Source: Lytechinus pictus (Eukaryota). From it: DNA of 64,000 bases. Made by a program: the position numbers and the translations under genes. Of the stretch, positions 7,393-57,673 are shown piece by piece (within the stretch, counting starts at the first letter, position 1; every line of letters starts with the position of its first letter). Where the stretch lies: positions 27,344,001-27,408,000 of the forward strand of contig NC_087251.1 of assembly GCF_037042905.1 (NCBI RefSeq), in the 5' to 3' direction. The notes beneath the pieces were generated by a model. The model saw only the letters and a program-made list of their open reading frames with translations. It made no database searches and was not told where the DNA came from.

Positions 7393-10282
7393 TAAGATTT
7401 TAAACACTTGTTTAAACCGTTTAAAGAACTACAATGTACTGTAATGTTTCATATAGGAGGCAACATTGTATGAAATTTTAAACAGTGCTTTTACTATGTA
7501 GGTTGTCATATGTTTGCTAAATTGTCCAGGTGTAAAATTCAATTTACATAGAGTAATGTTTACTGCTTCTCGAAATATACCAAGATTTGATAATGGAAAT
7601 TTCCTCAGTGAATTCAATCTTTGACAACTTCTTTCAAGGTCTGAAGGGGGTGCATAAATAACATTGACTTTGTTTAGATATATTTACGTCTTGGTTTCCT
7701 TACAGCTATTTGGCAGCATTTGATAACAAGATTAATGTTCTAACCTTAAAATCAGTATTTTAAAGGGAATACTCCAGCCATCTCTATACATGGTAGTCCG
7801 TTAAACATCATGTAAATTCTGATATGTTTATCTTTTGATATAAAGATAGAGTTGACAGCAAATTTTGGTATGATTTCTTTGAACATAATAGTGATAAGAC
7901 ATTTTTTCATCAACAGACCAACAGAAATACATTGCATTATCATGAAACAAATTAACGTAATTTATTTATATATAATTTTAGTTAATGAATTTCAATCATT
8001 TGGTTATAATTTTGCAGGATGATTATATACATATTTATGAAAATGTTGGATTCAAAAGTATTTTTTAATACTTTTTACTCAAAATTACACACCATAAATA
8101 TAATTATGTACATTTTACTTTATTTATTTCCATTTCATTTTATTATACAATATATTCTTGATCGGGATGAGATCTTTTAAACAAAATGTATAATCTCTAT
8201 CTTTAAATCAATGAAAAGGGAGGTACTGGGGGTCAGTAAGCTAAAATCATATTTAAAATAAAGATCATAAAAAAAGAAGACAACGAGGGATATACAGGAT
8301 GTGAAGGAGGAGGAGAAAAGGAAGATTTTTGTATCATATTACTTAGACAAAATTGACAATACATTTGGTGTTACATCATCTCTTTTGCAAAACATCAATT
8401 TGGACAAGAGATGCCAAATGAAATTAGTACTAAAGGGATTTAGGATTACTTTGCCCTTTGACTTGATCTGTTTGATTTCAAAGTGGAATATTGCTTTTCT
8501 AAGGTTCAGCTTTCTACTGGCATAATAATAATTATCTTGAACATGTGTTTCATTTTTTGGTCTTTTTTTATCACAAGGAAGTCATGGCAAATGTCAACGA
8601 AATGAGAAAATGGATCAGGGGAATTGATGGAAGCTTAAGCTGAAAGCAAAACAAAAGGGAAAGAAAAAAAGAAAATGAAAATCAAGAATTATATTTAAAA
8701 AAACCAATAGAGATAAGGCAGAGGGTGAGGAGTAAATGGAAAGAGAGATAAAGGGAAAGGGGATGATTTTAATACATGACTTATGATGACATAAACTTGA
8801 TGCATATGCATGGCTGCTTGCCATTTGTATCTAGTTCAGCTGACTATTATTGAAGGTAAATCTTGCATTGTATTCTATTATTCATGGTGTTCAGTTTCGT
8901 TTACCCAATAATGGAACAGCATTATAATATTTTTGCCAACTTCAGAGGTCCAACAAAAAGATTTATCAGGAGTATTTTGTGTCATCCAACTTCTCAAAAG
9001 ATATGAGTTACCATAGTATTTGTTTCTGTACTTCTGAAAATTATAGCCATTAGGAGCATTCCCAAGTATTTTGCCAACAAAAAAAATTGCTCAGGCTATA
9101 CCATGGTTTTGCATTTTGATGAGTTTATAGTTGAAAAATTAAACCCTCTCTGTTTGTTACATTTATTTGCCATTGTTCTCGCATTAAGCGTGCAGATGTG
9201 ATAAAAACATTGATGATTGCATAATGGTATAAAACATTTTGCATTGATTGTTGCCGAACTCATTGAATCATGGTTCCTCTAATAGCATGTCATGAATATA
9301 ATGTGCGGATGTGTAGCTATTTCATTTCACACCTACCAGCTCTGGAAAAATACCTGTTAAGTTCAAGAAATTGTTCACTCCTCAAAATATCCATTGTTTC
9401 ACACATTCCAACTTGCATAAAACCAGATAAAGTTCTTGCATCATAATCGACAATGCTTTCATATTCCTATAGCAAAAATGTGCATTCTCCTTTCCTCACT
9501 TCTAAAAATCTCATAGTTCTCTTTCACATGAAATATTTCCATGACCTTTGAGAAGTCTTTCTAATATTTCTTGTGATTTTGAAAAGTACTCATTAATTTC
9601 GTTTTGGAATATACATGTATAAATTCCTTGCTTTCACATTGGTATTTAGTAGAACATGTACCTGTTGTTTTCTGATTGAATTGGAATACCTGATAAGATA
9701 ATAACATCTTATTTAGTTGAGCAGGTGGGTCTGAACACTCCTCCTATAGGAATCAGTGTCCTTGTGGGATCATAGGATTCTGAGTGGGTCTAATGAATGA
9801 TAATGATCGATGAGAGCTTTTCGATAGTTCACTACCTGTACAGACTATCGAACGTATATGGAATGACTACAAAATATCAACTTAAAGGAAATATGTCATC
9901 ATAAACCCTGCAGATAAACTGTGCATTAATAGCTTGGTAAGAATATAAGTTGGTAACAAGGTCCATATTAGTTGGTTATGAGGTACCTATAGTCTTGCCG
10001 GACTTTTTATGTGTTTTGAAGTATAGAACGATAGTCCAATTTCCATCGGTTCTCTTAACTGCAGGTTTCACAATGATGAACTACCTTTGACTGGAAAGGT
10101 GTGAATTTTCAATTTCTTATTGGCTAGGCAGAGTCCATCCCCCAAACAGGTTGATTTGAAGAAATAATAGAAAACTATAAAACAAGAGTTAAACTTAAAC
10201 TAAAGAGTTCATTAAGAGCAGATGTAAATAAGAAATTTATGACATTTCAGAGATATGCTTTTTTCATAAAATTATTAAATAT

Positions 10283-28982: not shown

Positions 28983-29111
28983 ATGGCAACTGATTTGGCA
29001 TTCGACCTCACTTTTTACGAGAGGCGTCGGGAACACAGGTCACCTTCTTTGCCAGTGATACGCAGTGACCTGACAGTAGAAGCATGCCTTATGCGAAAGT
29101 ACTCACGGGGT
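28983..29111 (+). CDS. Candidate alternative first coding exon, MATDLAFDLTFYERRREHRSPSLPVIRSDLTVEACLMRKYSRG
   Basis: Good Kozak context (ggaATGG), 43 codons, phase-0 donor GGT|gtaagt, at the 3' end of a ~1 kb GC/CpG-elevated non-repeat island. Confidence 0.45.
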
Positions 29112-40110: not shown

Positions 40111-40152
40111 TCGCTGGAGAGCACCCGGCGTATGCTGCAGATGGCAGAAGAG
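40111..40152 (+). CDS. SNAP25: SNAP-25 coding exon (equivalent of vertebrate exon 3), SLESTRRMLQMAEE, phase 0-0
   Basis: 42 nt. Long pyrimidine tract ending ttttattcag, donor GAG|gtaaga. Peptide closely matches human SLESTRRMLQLVEE and the exon has the same length. Confidence 0.97.
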
Positions 40153-45822: not shown

Positions 45823-45996
45823 TAATACCTTGGTCACATTTGTTCTAAGGCGGCCGTACGGCGAGTCGAAAACAGCCGTTTTAACATTTTGTGTACCAAC
45901 TACATATACATGTAGGTGGTTTGAATTAAAATTAATCAAACGGCTGTTTTCGACTCGCCGTACGGCCGCCGTAGATCAAATGTGACCAAGGTATTA
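45823..45996. mobile_element. MITE with long, near-perfect inverted repeats
   Basis: About 59-bp arms (taccttggtcacatttg...ggcggccgtacggcgagtcgaaaacagccgttt), TWA flanks. Confidence 0.88.
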
Positions 45997-46312: not shown

Positions 46313-47249
46313 TTTTTGTCTCACCTGCATAGCAGAGTGAGACTATAGGCGCCGCTTTTCCGACGGCGGCGGCGGCGTCAACACCAAATCTTAACCTGAG
46401 GTTAAGTTTTTGAAATGACAGCATAACTTAGAAAGTATATGGACCTAGTTCATGAAACTTGGCCATAAGGTTAATCAAGTATTACTGAACATCTTGCCTG
46501 AGTTTCATGTCACATGACCAAGGTCAAAGGTCATTTAGGGTCAATGAACTTAGACCATGTTGGGGGAATCAACATCAAAATCTTAACCTAAGGTTAAGTT
46601 TTTGAAATGTCATCATAACTTAGAAAATATATGGACCTAGTTCATGAAACTTATACATAAGGTTAATCAAGTATCACTGAACATCCTGCATGAGTTTCAC
46701 GTCACATGACCAAGGTCAAAGGTCATTTAGGGTCAATGAACTTTGGCCGAATTGGGGGTATCTGTTGAATTACCATCATAACTTTGAAAGTTTATGGATC
46801 TGATTCATGAAACTTGGACATAATAGTAATCAAGTATTACTGAACATCCTGTGCAAGTTTCAGGTCACATGATCAAGGTCAAAGGTCATTTAGGGTCAAT
46901 GAACTTTGGCCAAATTGGGGTATTTGTTGAATTACAGCCATAAATTTGAAAGTGTGTTGGTCTAGTTCATAAAACTTGGACATAATAGTAATCAAGTATC
47001 ACTGAACATCCTGTGCGAGTTTCAGGTCACATGATCAAGGTCAAAGAACTTTGGCCACGTTGGGGGTATTTGTTGAATTGCCATCATATCTCTATAAGTG
47101 TATTGGTCTAGTTCATAAAACGTGGAAATAAGAGTAACCAAGTATCACTGAACATCTTGTGCGAGTTATAGTAGTTTTCAAAATCAGCACTGCTGCTATA
47201 TTGAATCGCGTGATGCAGGTGAGACGGCCAGAGGCATTCCACTTGTTTT
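46313..47249 (+). mobile_element. HINE-like element, subfamily A, about 5 units
   Basis: Same termini and core as 6429-7392. Small deletion between ggtcaaag direct repeats near 47040. Confidence 0.88.
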
Positions 47250-47658: not shown

Positions 47659-48107
47659 AATGAATTGTGTGGTTAGGTAATCTTTGATATTAATAGGCTT
47701 TTCTTGACAAATAATACCCATGTTGATATTATTTTAGATCTCGAGTCATTCATATCTAGGCAAAAAAAATGAAAGCAAATGGCAAGATTGTTAGAGCAAG
47801 AAAAGACATGACATTTTATTTATTGAACCTGCCACCAAATTGATTTTACAAAAGTATAAAAAAGCTGAAATGAGTTCAAGATATTCAGCACAAAAAAAAG
47901 AGGAATACTCCAATGATGAATATTCCCGCCTTGTCACGCTTTCTCTATTTGCCTGTGATGATTTCATGTCTTGGTTGGAGTGCTTGCATTTATCCCTTGA
48001 AGCCCTTTCTATGTATGTTACGTGCTAGCTTTTTCCACTCAGTCCCATAGGTGTGTTTCTGTGTGTGGTGGTATTATTCTTGATGTGACATCTTATTTCC
48101 ATCTTAG

Positions 48108-48156
48108 AGTCAAGATATGGGCATCAAGACATTAGTAATGCTGGATGAGCAAGGAG
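48108..48156 (+). CDS. SNAP25: SNAP-25 exon 4a, SQDMGIKTLVMLDEQG(E), phase 0-1
   Basis: 49 nt, acceptor tttccatcttag, donor GAG|gtaaga. Homologous to human SKDAGIRTLVMLDEQG; includes the zero-layer Gln. Confidence 0.96.
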
Positions 48157-49676
48157 GTAAGAGAAAGAAAAGGGGGCTCAAGGGCTCCGTTTAGAGGGAT
48201 GCAGTCTGCTTTTCAACATTTTATCACCATGTTTATCCACTTATTCTTCACTGGGTTTTTTTTTCCCCAACTCTTATTCATTCTTGTTTGCATGATGTGG
48301 TGAAATGCATTGTTTTCAATCTTTGATCAATTTTGTTACAATATATTTCACTATACGAGTGAAGTAAATGTAATGGTTTGAAGCAATTTGGTGACTGGAC
48401 ATGCACTGTACCTGATTTATCGAGAAAAGGCATACCCTTTTCATATCAACCACAAGCCGATGATGTATTACACCACAAAGTGCTCAATATCATGAAATGT
48501 GTCCCATAATCAATTTTTTACAGTGTGTTTTCAGCTCACTTTCTTGCATCACAACCTACATTTACTTAACAGGGATTGGATGGTTAGTTGGTTTACCGCT
48601 GCGGAGAATGATTCAGACAGTCCTCTTTCTAAGAAATTTAATAAACCAACACAAAAGATTGTGATTATAGAGCGATTATAATTATGAATAAAATATCACG
48701 AAATGTTCCATGAGAATGATAATAAATATATGTCCTTGCCATTCACTTGTTCCAAGTTTTATTGATTAAAGATTGCAAACATGCTGTTTGATGCTTGTTC
48801 CTTTGAAGTTCAGTGCTTCCATAATTTTCTCAATATATTTATCAGGAAGAGGACTGCCTCATTCATTGTGTAGCAATAATAAAAGCTAATCAATCAAAAA
48901 GCAATCCTGAAAGCATGCTTAATGGTATGAGGAAGATTTGTTTTTCAGTGAGATACTTTTTAAACAGACTGCAACATTAGGCAATGATGAAAATCATGCT
49001 GATGCTAAGAAAAGATCTAAAAGTCGAATAATGAACATTTATTGCAATTGTAATTTCTGTGTTTACTTCCTTTTTAAGGACATCTCACATTGTTATTTGT
49101 AACCAATTTTCTGAGAAATTTTTCCCCATTTGTATTCATGCATTTTGGAAACATTGTGCAGTGGTACACTAGCATGAGATCCATTGCCTGACATTGCAGT
49201 TTGCTGGAAAGATTGAAAAGATTCTGTGCGGAAGAAAACAAATCGTGTCAAATCTCAAAAGATAACCCATTAACATGACAATGCTCAGCAAAAAAAAAAA
49301 CATAACAGCTTTATTCCAAGAATTAACTGTGTTATATTGCACAAAAGCGAGAACCTTTGTCATGTAATATGCTCTGCATTCATGTGAATGTAACCAATAC
49401 TAATATCTATTTATGAAATGCTGTGTTTTAAACCACTAAATCTTGACACATTCCATTTTCCTTTTTGCCTGTAGCAAGTAGATTCATGGTAACAGGGTTT
49501 ATTCTATTCAAATCAGTTGTATTTTATTCATTTTTTGTTCTTCGTTCTTTCTTCACTTCTCTTTCGTCCCTTCTCCCACTCTCTCTCTCTCTCTTACTCT
49601 TTCTCTCTGTCTTTCATTTCTTTGTTCCATTACATTGTTCTTTTTATTGACGTGATTGCTACCATCATCAATGTAG

Positions 49677-49725
49677 AGCAAGGAAGCGGGTATCAAGACA
49701 TTGGTTCTCCTGGATGAACAAGGAG
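49677..49725 (+). CDS. SNAP25: SNAP-25 exon 4b (duplicated alternative exon), SKEAGIKTLVLLDEQG(E), phase 0-1
   Basis: 49 nt, acceptor atgtag, donor GAG|gtgata. Same length and phases as 4a, 12 of 16 residues identical, five synonymous differences at conserved codons. Confidence 0.9.
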
Positions 49726-49752
49726 GTGATAAAATAGTGACTGTGCTTGTCC

Positions 49753-49850
49753 CCATGCCCCCATCACACCACTCCTTGCATCTCATCCTTATCTCCATCA
49801 TTAACCCCACCCTTACCCCATCATTAACCTATACCCAACTCCTAAATCAT
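49753..49850 (+). promoter_or_regulatory. Candidate intronic splicing enhancer: YCAY cluster downstream of exon 4b
   Basis: 10 YCAY tetramers in 49753-49824 and an 11th at 49847, starting 28 nt after the exon end. Confidence 0.6.
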
Positions 49851-50557
49851 AGTTGTGATTGCGTAGTCTATAACATAACCTGTACAGTTACAACCATTCC
49901 CAAATGTAGTGTAGTGTAGCTTAACATGTACTCTGCAATCATTGCTAATCAAAGTGTTGTTAATTGAAGTTTAGTGTTAGTGCTTAGTGCTCAGAGTGTG
50001 TATTTATTAACACGTGTGTGTTGCTGTGGAGTTTAAATAACACTTGTCCAGCTGAAATAATTTTTTTTTATTTTCTTCAATAATAGGCATGTTTTAAGAT
50101 GATAGAAAATTATAGGTGATTTTAGAGAAGGGAATTTTGTGAAACAATTGAGGAACAATAAAAATATTTTCCTTTTGATGTTATAAAAGTAGAATATGTG
50201 CATATTCAAAGAAATATGAGGCAATTGAAATGTCCTTATATCACATACAAAATGTAGGTGTAATAGTTACGCATGCATGTATGTAGTATATTGAGAATAT
50301 AGACTATATCATAACCGTATTTCCCTTGAAGTTTTAATACATGACACAATTATGAAATTTTATTTTTCCAATGTTTGCTTTAATATGGAATCAGTTTAAT
50401 TCCCCAGTTGTTTGTTCAAAGAAAAAAAAACATATTTCAAAGTTTTATTAATGTTTTTTTAACTTGAATTATAAAAAAAATCAATAAGTAATATTTTTGG
50501 AATTCAGGTTGATATATTGAAATAAGATGACAAGAATTTATTATTTAAACAAGGCAA

Positions 50558-54157: not shown

Positions 54158-55341
54158 TTTTTGTCTCGCCTGCATAGCAGAGCGAGACTATATAGGCGCC
54201 GCTTTTCCGACGGCGACGGCGGCGGCATCAACATCAAATCTTAACCTAAGGTTAAGTTTTTGAAATGACATCATAACTTAAAATGTATATGGACCTAGTT
54301 CATGAAACTTGGACATAAGGTTAATCAAGTATTACTGAACATCCTGCCTGAGTTTCAGGTCACATGACCAAGGTCAAAGGTCATTTAGGGTCAATGAACT
54401 TAGACCATGTTGGGAAAATTATTTTCAAAATCTTAACCGAAGGTTAAGTTTTTGAAATGACATCATAACTTAGAAAGTATATGGACCTAGTTCATGAAAC
54501 TTGGGCATAAGGTTAATCAAGTATTAGTAAACATCCTGCTTGAGTTTCAGGTCACGTGACCAAGGTCAAAGGTCATTTAGGGTCAATGAACTTTGGTCAA
54601 GTTGGGGGTATTTGTTGAATTACTATCATAACTTTGAAAATTTATGGATCTAGTCCTTGAAACTTGGACATAGGTTAATCAAGTATTAGTGAACATTTTG
54701 CCTGAGTTTCAGGTCACATGACCAAGGTCAAAGGTCATTTAGGGTCAATGAACTTTGGCCAAGTTGGGGGTATTTGTTGAATTACCATCATAACTTTGAA
54801 AATTTATGGATCTAGTTCATGAAACTTGGACATTAGGTAAATTAAGTACCACTGAATATCCTGTGGGAGTTTCAGGTCACATGACCATGGTCAATGGTCA
54901 TTTAAGGTCAATGAACTTTGGCCGTGTTGGGGGTATTTGTTAAATTACCATCCTAACTCTGAAAGTTTATGGATCTAGTTCATAAAACTTGGACATAAGA
55001 GTAATCAAGTATCACTGAACATCCTGTACGAGTTTCAGGTCACATGACCATGGTCAAAGGTCATTAAAGGTCAATGAACTTTGGCCGTGTTGGGGGTATT
55101 TGTTGAATTACCATCATAACTTTGAAAGTTTATGGATAGAGTGAATGAAATGTGGACATGGGTGTAGTTGACAGTCTTAAGTCTCCGTTCAAATGTCATT
55201 TATGGTCAATGAACGTGGTATTATGTCATTATATGAATGATGTTTTTGTGAATAATTATTTTATAGTAGTTTTCAAAGTTAGCACTGCTGCTATATTTAA
55301 TTGCGTAATGCAGGCGAGACTGCCAGAGGCGTTCCACTTGT
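54158..55341 (+). mobile_element. HINE-like element, subfamily B, about 6 units
   Basis: Subterminal IR at 54163 and 55308, CGG microsatellite, tandem core. Confidence 0.88.
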
Positions 55342-57555: not shown

Positions 57556-57673
57556 AGCAACTTGATCGGATTGAAGAGGGTATGGACCAGATCAATACAG
57601 ACATGAGAGAAGCTGAGAAGAATCTCACTGGATTAGAGAAATGCTGTGGAATCTGCGTCTGTCCCTGGAAAAA
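57556..57673 (+). CDS. SNAP25: SNAP-25 exon 5, (E)[38 protein letters not shown], phase 1-2
   Basis: 118 nt as in vertebrates, acceptor aatag, donor AA|gtaagt. Encodes the C-terminal half of SNARE helix 1 and the cysteine palmitoylation cluster. Confidence 0.98.

Follow-up and report, generated by a model that had tools for sequence, protein, structure and literature searches.

The SNAP-25 gene of the sea urchin Lytechinus pictus carries two consecutive versions of exon 4, here called 4a and 4b, and the splicing of one or the other between exons 3 and 5 exchanges four residues of the protein, Q/K40, D/E41, M/A42 and M/L49 (4a/4b, human numbering). Comparison of these exons across animal genomes indicates that the splice switch is real and ancient, and that it likely has a function. 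The K40 form (4b) could well couple more tightly to synaptotagmin-1 than the Q40 form (4a), a reading that we hold at about even confidence and weigh below against other explanations of the same pair.

Two exon-4 copies in one SNAP-25 gene

The window, the whole 64,000-nucleotide stretch that was analysed (G000:C7:27344001-27408000), contains part of one SNAP-25 gene on the plus strand (Table 1). Exon 7 is 100% identical to the record named Lytechinus pictus SNAP-25-like, and membership of the family is indicated by a match above the cut-off to PF00835 (two SNARE motifs and a cysteine-rich linker), by the cysteine-rich CCGICVCPW encoded by exon 5, and by the match of P0129, the full-length S. 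purpuratus orthologue, to PDB SNAP-25 at 1e-69. The family search and the exon-7 search of the genome each turned up a single SNAP-25/23 locus, and both give lower bounds.

Exons 4a and 4b are homologous, lie in tandem and agree in length, phase and AG/GT ends; they are identical at 37 of 49 nucleotides, with four replacement codons (40, 41, 42 and 49) and six silent ones. The codon comparison of both exons, with residue numbers 39-55 checked against the PDB SNAP-25 chains 1sfc_C and 1jth_A, confirmed the four differences that had been described from the sequence, together with the identity in both copies of S39, G43, T46, L50 and Q53, the residues of SNARE layers -4 to 0. No third copy of exon 4 was found between exons 3 and 5, where the next-best score was 4.3 against 38.9 and 37.7 for the pair, and the maximum of 10 shuffles was 2.7.

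Table 1. Features of the exon-4 region of the SNAP-25 gene (window coordinates)
Feature	Position	Strand	Description
Exon 3	40111..40152	+	42 nt; upstream splice partner of 4a/4b; RNA loose ends
Exon 4a, Q40/M42 type	48108..48156	+	49 nt, GTAAG donor; reads SQDMGIKTLVMLDEQG; RefSeq model P0001
Exon 4b, K40/A42 type	49677..49725	+	49 nt, AG/GT-flanked, GTGA donor; reads SKEAGIKTLVLLDEQG; RefSeq model P0127
Exon 5	57556..57673	+	118 nt; downstream splice partner; one copy; RNA loose ends
K40 codon of 4b, AAG	49680..49682	+	counterpart in 4a: CAA (Q), 48111-48113
A42 codon of 4b	49686..49688	+	counterpart in 4a: M, 48117-48119; second conserved discriminator of exon types
CU-rich, AG-free zone before 4b	49517..49674	+	158 nt; putative distant-branch-point or regulated-acceptor architecture

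Splicing of 4a and 4b in RNA

Four RNA runs, which carry no tissue labels, were examined over 47900-49900. In X1, one contig joins exon 3-4a-exon 5 at a depth of 167 and a second joins exon 3-4b-exon 5 at a depth of 169. Among the reads, drawn from roughly 6% of each raw run, all five in X19 follow exon 3-4b-exon 5 and none lies on 4a, X20 gave one read, and four of the six in X21, with two starts, join 4a directly to 4b. Each copy is thus spliced singly between exons 3 and 5 (both in the X1 contigs, 4b also in the X19 reads), and the original prediction that one gene makes both isoforms by splicing is supported by the presence of both exons in RNA and by the single SNAP-25/23 locus, a count that is a lower bound.

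The exclusivity of the two copies is leaky in RNA. Inclusion of both shifts the frame and brings a stop within 4b, skipping of both brings a stop within exon 5, and the proteins from 4a and 4b transcripts are of equal length; given the 4a-4b joints and these frameshift stops, exclusivity is likely enforced by frame and transcript decay. Steric exclusion was ruled out, since the exons lie 1520 nt apart and are joinable (X21), and no convincing RNA pairing structure across 4a/4b was found among the 10 inverted pairs listed.

The acceptors of the two copies differ, with an AG-free zone of 55 nt before 4a versus 158 nt before 4b. The same direction is seen in two echinoderm-like loci when the K exon is compared with the Q exon (110 vs 39 nt in L036, 163 vs 45 nt in L084); the single-copy exons 3, 5, 6 and 7 have zones of 41-76 nt, and only one of 63 other exon-4 acceptors reaches at least 110 nt. 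By analogy with distant-branch-point exons, the long AG-free CU tract and the weaker donor of 4b suggest that 4b could be the regulated exon and 4a the default. UGC near an acceptor is a signature of neural microexons; the UGC motif before 4b was dropped as evidence, because it is also present before Q exons and is absent from the K exon of L036.

Conservation and origin of the exon pair

Annotated isoforms were examined in 35 invertebrate taxa, with Pieris dropped (both of its rows carry the same exon) and Patiria and Mytilus not entered. At least two exon-4 variants are annotated in 34 taxa, and a K40 exon is paired with a non-K40 exon in 30 of these 34, counts that are not independent because the taxa are related. 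They comprise echinoderms of five classes, three hemichordates and, among protostomes, gastropods, bivalves, a brachiopod, a nemertean, horseshoe crabs and insects. Residue 40 in the non-K rows is Q in 25, H in five, E in three and R in one. The exceptions to the pairing are Pecten, Argopecten and Haliotis, for which the variants read give two K40 exons, and Helicoverpa, with no K row among those listed.

Within echinoids, the peptides of 4a and 4b are both unchanged in five of five species. When an exon is compared with those of the other superphylum, the nearer type is its own in 64 of 64 cases, and in 60 of 64 when column 40 is left out. Residue 42 is small in 36 of 38 K40 exons (A in 33, S in two, D in one) and V, M, L or I in 32 of 34 non-K exons, so that, in the exons compared, position 42 tells the two types apart no less well than position 40; in Pecten and Argopecten V and A are swapped at 42 while K40 stays in both exons. 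Among protostomes, the acidic residue 52 is lost in seven of 18 non-K exons versus none of 23 K exons. Third exon-4 variants occur in bees, moths, oysters and Amphiura (P0380, P0404, P0412, P0415 and P0179), and in the insect third variant the acidic residue 51 or 52 is also lost. Apostichopus has an apparent second SNAP-25-like gene (P0244, P0306 and P0307) with a Q40 exon that lacks E52, which may mean that the Q form moved separately to a gene of its own.

Four cnidarian genera carry Q40, which makes Q probably the older state. Metagenome loci with at least two tandem exon-4 copies numbered six of 86, and their lineage labels are assigned from peptide likeness. A DNA tree of 15 exons, which included the trait columns and left out the degenerate copy of L018 and the second Q copy of L030, placed the K exons on one side with support 84/82 (unstarred), and a clade of ambulacrarian exons only was rejected (p-AU 0.007; 0.033 without third positions). 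The order is Q then K in the window, L036 and L084, and K then Q in the protostome-like loci L018, L022, L030 and L073 and in two insect gene models. Triplets of exon 4 in insects, oysters, Amphiura and L030 show a turnover of copies through gain and loss, by which Q and K could change places. On balance, these sequences lean towards a single origin of the exon-4 pair; if there was one origin, the four-residue swap has been retained for more than half a billion years. Two of the loci also hold extra copies: L018 has an additional, decayed exon 4 of K type (minus strand, 594), and in L030 the Q-type exon has recently been duplicated in tandem (minus strand, 3186 and 3403).

Residue 40 in chordates and SNAP-23

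The paralogues SNAP-25 and SNAP-23 share with 4b and 4a the K40/Q40 difference at the synaptotagmin primary interface, which in the paralogues is divided between genes whereas in the urchin it is a splice choice within one gene. The original prediction had assigned Q40 to vertebrate SNAP-23 as a whole, and this stands for tetrapods, in which proteins named SNAP-23 have Q in 22 and H in two of 24 readable rows (one of 25 was unreadable), but not for non-tetrapods, in which Q40 occurs in none of four and the fish residue is K or R. In a tree built without exon 4, the elephant shark (K40) and teleosts (R/K40) lie inside the SNAP-23 clade (96/89*), so that the Q40 of tetrapods may be convergent.

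The interface of SNAP-23 is reported to differ from that of SNAP-25 by K40Q, L47I and V48T (PMC8967716, PMC9258623). Exon 4a has K40Q but keeps L47 and V48, and it matches the gnathostome SNAP-25 exon at 13 of 16 residues, as many as 4b does; the likening of 4a to SNAP-23 and of 4b to SNAP-25 therefore holds at residue 40 but does not extend to L47I/V48T or to overall distance from SNAP-25.

Only a Q40 exon was found in the amphioxus records and in the tunicate records and loci, where no K40 exon was detected, and none of the chordate records or loci examined has both exon types. When exon profiles were scored without column 40, all 12 SNAP-23-named or SNAP-23-like exons were Q-type (+1.3 to +11.7), vertebrate SNAP-25 exons were K-type in four of five, amphioxus was Q-type (+6.9) and four tunicates were K-type (-1.1 to -4.6), scores that must be read with the invertebrate Q profile being the broader one, which rewards divergence. 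Separation of isoforms after gene duplication has been reported for other genes in PMC4494069, whose model of an exon pair divided between paralogues resembles the present case and whose main text, as available, does not include SNAP25. Its extension to SNAP-25/SNAP-23 is a hypothesis with evidence against it: a chordate ancestor with both exons, later divided between the paralogues, would fit the profile scores, but the lack of a two-exon chordate among those examined, the K/R40 of fish SNAP-23 and the breadth of the Q profile weaken it, and we consider it unlikely.

Proposed synaptotagmin coupling and alternative explanations

Residue K40 belongs, with D51, E52, E55, Q56 and D166, to the SNAP-25 side of the primary interface according to PMC8967716, which bears out the earlier placing of K40 there beside D51/E52/E55. 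In urchin SNAP-25 the equivalents of D51, E52, E55, Q56 and D166 are all kept. In one C2B exon of the urchin Syt1-like gene (G000:C19), 36 of 38 aligned residues are those of mammalian Syt1, and the gene also keeps the NPYY and PRRP motifs, which map to R281, E295, Y338 and R398/R399. The intact C2B exon is followed, some 180 nt downstream, by a short degenerate duplicate of part of it (L099 in G000:C19, minus strand near 7696).

Splicing of 4a or 4b between exons 3 and 5 yields two proteins of the same length with the same layer residues, and nonsense-mediated decay would remove the frameshifted products with both exons or neither, leaving one exon per protein. Q40 would take a single charged contact away from the primary interface and leave D51, E52, E55, Q56 and D166 in place, so that 4a would be expected to weaken rather than abolish coupling to synaptotagmin-1, for slower or more general secretion. 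The swap is thus best read as graded tuning and not as a full mimic of SNAP-23.

That some protostome non-K exons lack the acidic residue 52 fits a looser contact of non-K forms with synaptotagmin. The review PMC10102358 reports that K40E disturbs evoked release and that the SNARE complex is not destabilised, a result limited as an analogue of K40Q since K40E reverses the charge. Replacement of SNAP-25 by SNAP-23 leads to asynchronous, Syt7-driven release (PMC4244210), and in the text of that paper examined K40 has no occurrence and the phenotype is not mapped to residue 40. Several points count against the K40 reading: amphioxus and tunicates, for which only a Q40 exon was found, have synapses, the scallops and Haliotis (three of 34 taxa) have two K40 exons among their variants, the 'ovarian' cDNA described below is the K form, the 4a-4b joints make the choice of exon leaky, and SNAP-23, which bears Q40, still supports Ca2+-triggered fusion with Syt2 via the primary interface (PMC9258623, PMC8967716).

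Selection might instead have acted on helix packing at residues 42 and 49, with effects on N-terminal zippering, priming or the choice of syntaxin and none on synaptotagmin binding. Both are heptad g positions flanking the core, which heptad geometry would turn towards syntaxin, and the effects would come from residue 42 being bulky in one exon and small in the other; the division of the exon types at residue 42 given above agrees with this, as do Pecten and Argopecten, which change 42 alone at constant K40. Tetrapod SNAP-23, however, mostly has A42 as SNAP-25 does (15 of 25 rows, one unreadable), and the missing acidic residue 52 of some protostome non-K exons points to the synaptotagmin face; we regard packing as a somewhat unlikely cause of the difference. 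That the surface formed by residues 40 and 41 tunes a partner other than synaptotagmin-1, such as alpha-SNAP/NSF, Munc13, CAPS, tomosyn or a different synaptotagmin, for example Syt7, is quite unlikely: SNAP-23 is functionally paired with Syt7 in PMC4244210 and the nearby changes V48F and D166Y are predicted to alter alpha-SNAP binding in PMC10102358, but the material examined ties residues 40-42 to none of these partners and names K40 for Syt1.

It is very unlikely that the two proteins are near-equivalent and the pair is kept for regulation, for example to set the SNAP-25 level through frameshifted transcripts bound for decay. The double inclusion of 4a and 4b with its early stop would suit such a role, as would the many lineages with one exon 4 only: of 32 metagenome loci that cover exons 3-5, 31 hold a single copy, although this set is redundant and its search pattern passes over many non-K exons. 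Yet the residue signature that each exon keeps across phyla would be left unexplained. 

The exon pair is in itself a natural exchange of four residues at the SNARE-synaptotagmin interface, free of the many other differences between SNAP-25 and SNAP-23, with which the contribution of K40 to synchronous release can be examined. It also hints at how invertebrates with a single SNAP-25 gene may cover both fast and general secretion.

Eggs, sperm and known isoform systems

Of the S. purpuratus cDNA entries, AAC83577.1, whose title calls the SNAP-25 'ovarian', has the K form, and AAC35867.1, reportedly from sperm work, has the Q form. The review PMC8446563 assigns Syt1 to sea urchin cortical granules and SNAP-23 to mouse eggs. 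An 'ovarian' cDNA of the K form argues against a Q form for cortical granules, and, together with the Syt1 of the cortical granules, it suggests that the tissue split proposed earlier, with 4b for neuronal release and 4a for cortical-granule or constitutive exocytosis, may be wrong. Work on egg and on sperm exocytosis in urchins may have handled different SNAP-25 splice forms.

The urchin pair resembles vertebrate SNAP-25a/25b, in which the mutually exclusive exons 5a/5b are dated to bony fish (PMC2581893), in that a tandem duplicated exon of the first SNARE helix of SNAP-25 is used once per transcript; it differs in that the urchin pair is exon 4 (residues 39-55) and is found in protostomes and ambulacrarians, whereas the vertebrate pair is exon 5. 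A second exon 5 was not found in the window and its 50 kb flank, which hold one copy only. The accessible text of PMC2581893 treats exon 5 alone, with no occurrence of 'exon 4' or 'invertebrate', and in that of PMC8373072 SNAP25 is named once, within a list of human events. No published description of the invertebrate exon-4 pair was found in the literature searched, in which few subscription journals are represented; the 4a and 4b isoforms are already deposited in RefSeq and GenBank as database entries.

Other features of the gene and window

Neither the window nor the 20 kb upstream of it yielded the canonical exon 2 of P0122. Candidate alternative N-terminal exons lie at 28983-29111 and about 369-494 of the window, one of which matches RefSeq P0001 exactly while the other resembles the N-terminus of Amphiura. 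The gene also has alternative last coding exons 8a, 8b and 8c (L007:3994, L007:9488 and G000:C7 near 27434416, beyond the window), which recode the C-terminal end of the second SNARE helix. RNA contigs contain the joints 7-8a and 7-8b (104 and 71 in X5; 72 for 8b in X1), the AG-free zones of 8a and 8b are 249 and 358 nt long, and several last exons are annotated too in starfish, hemichordates, molluscs and insects. An interspersed element that contains tandem units of 146-192 nt occurs twice in the window, at 46313-47246 and 54158-55341, and an inverted repeat of 84 nt, 85% complementary with a loop of 6 nt, lies at 45823-45996.
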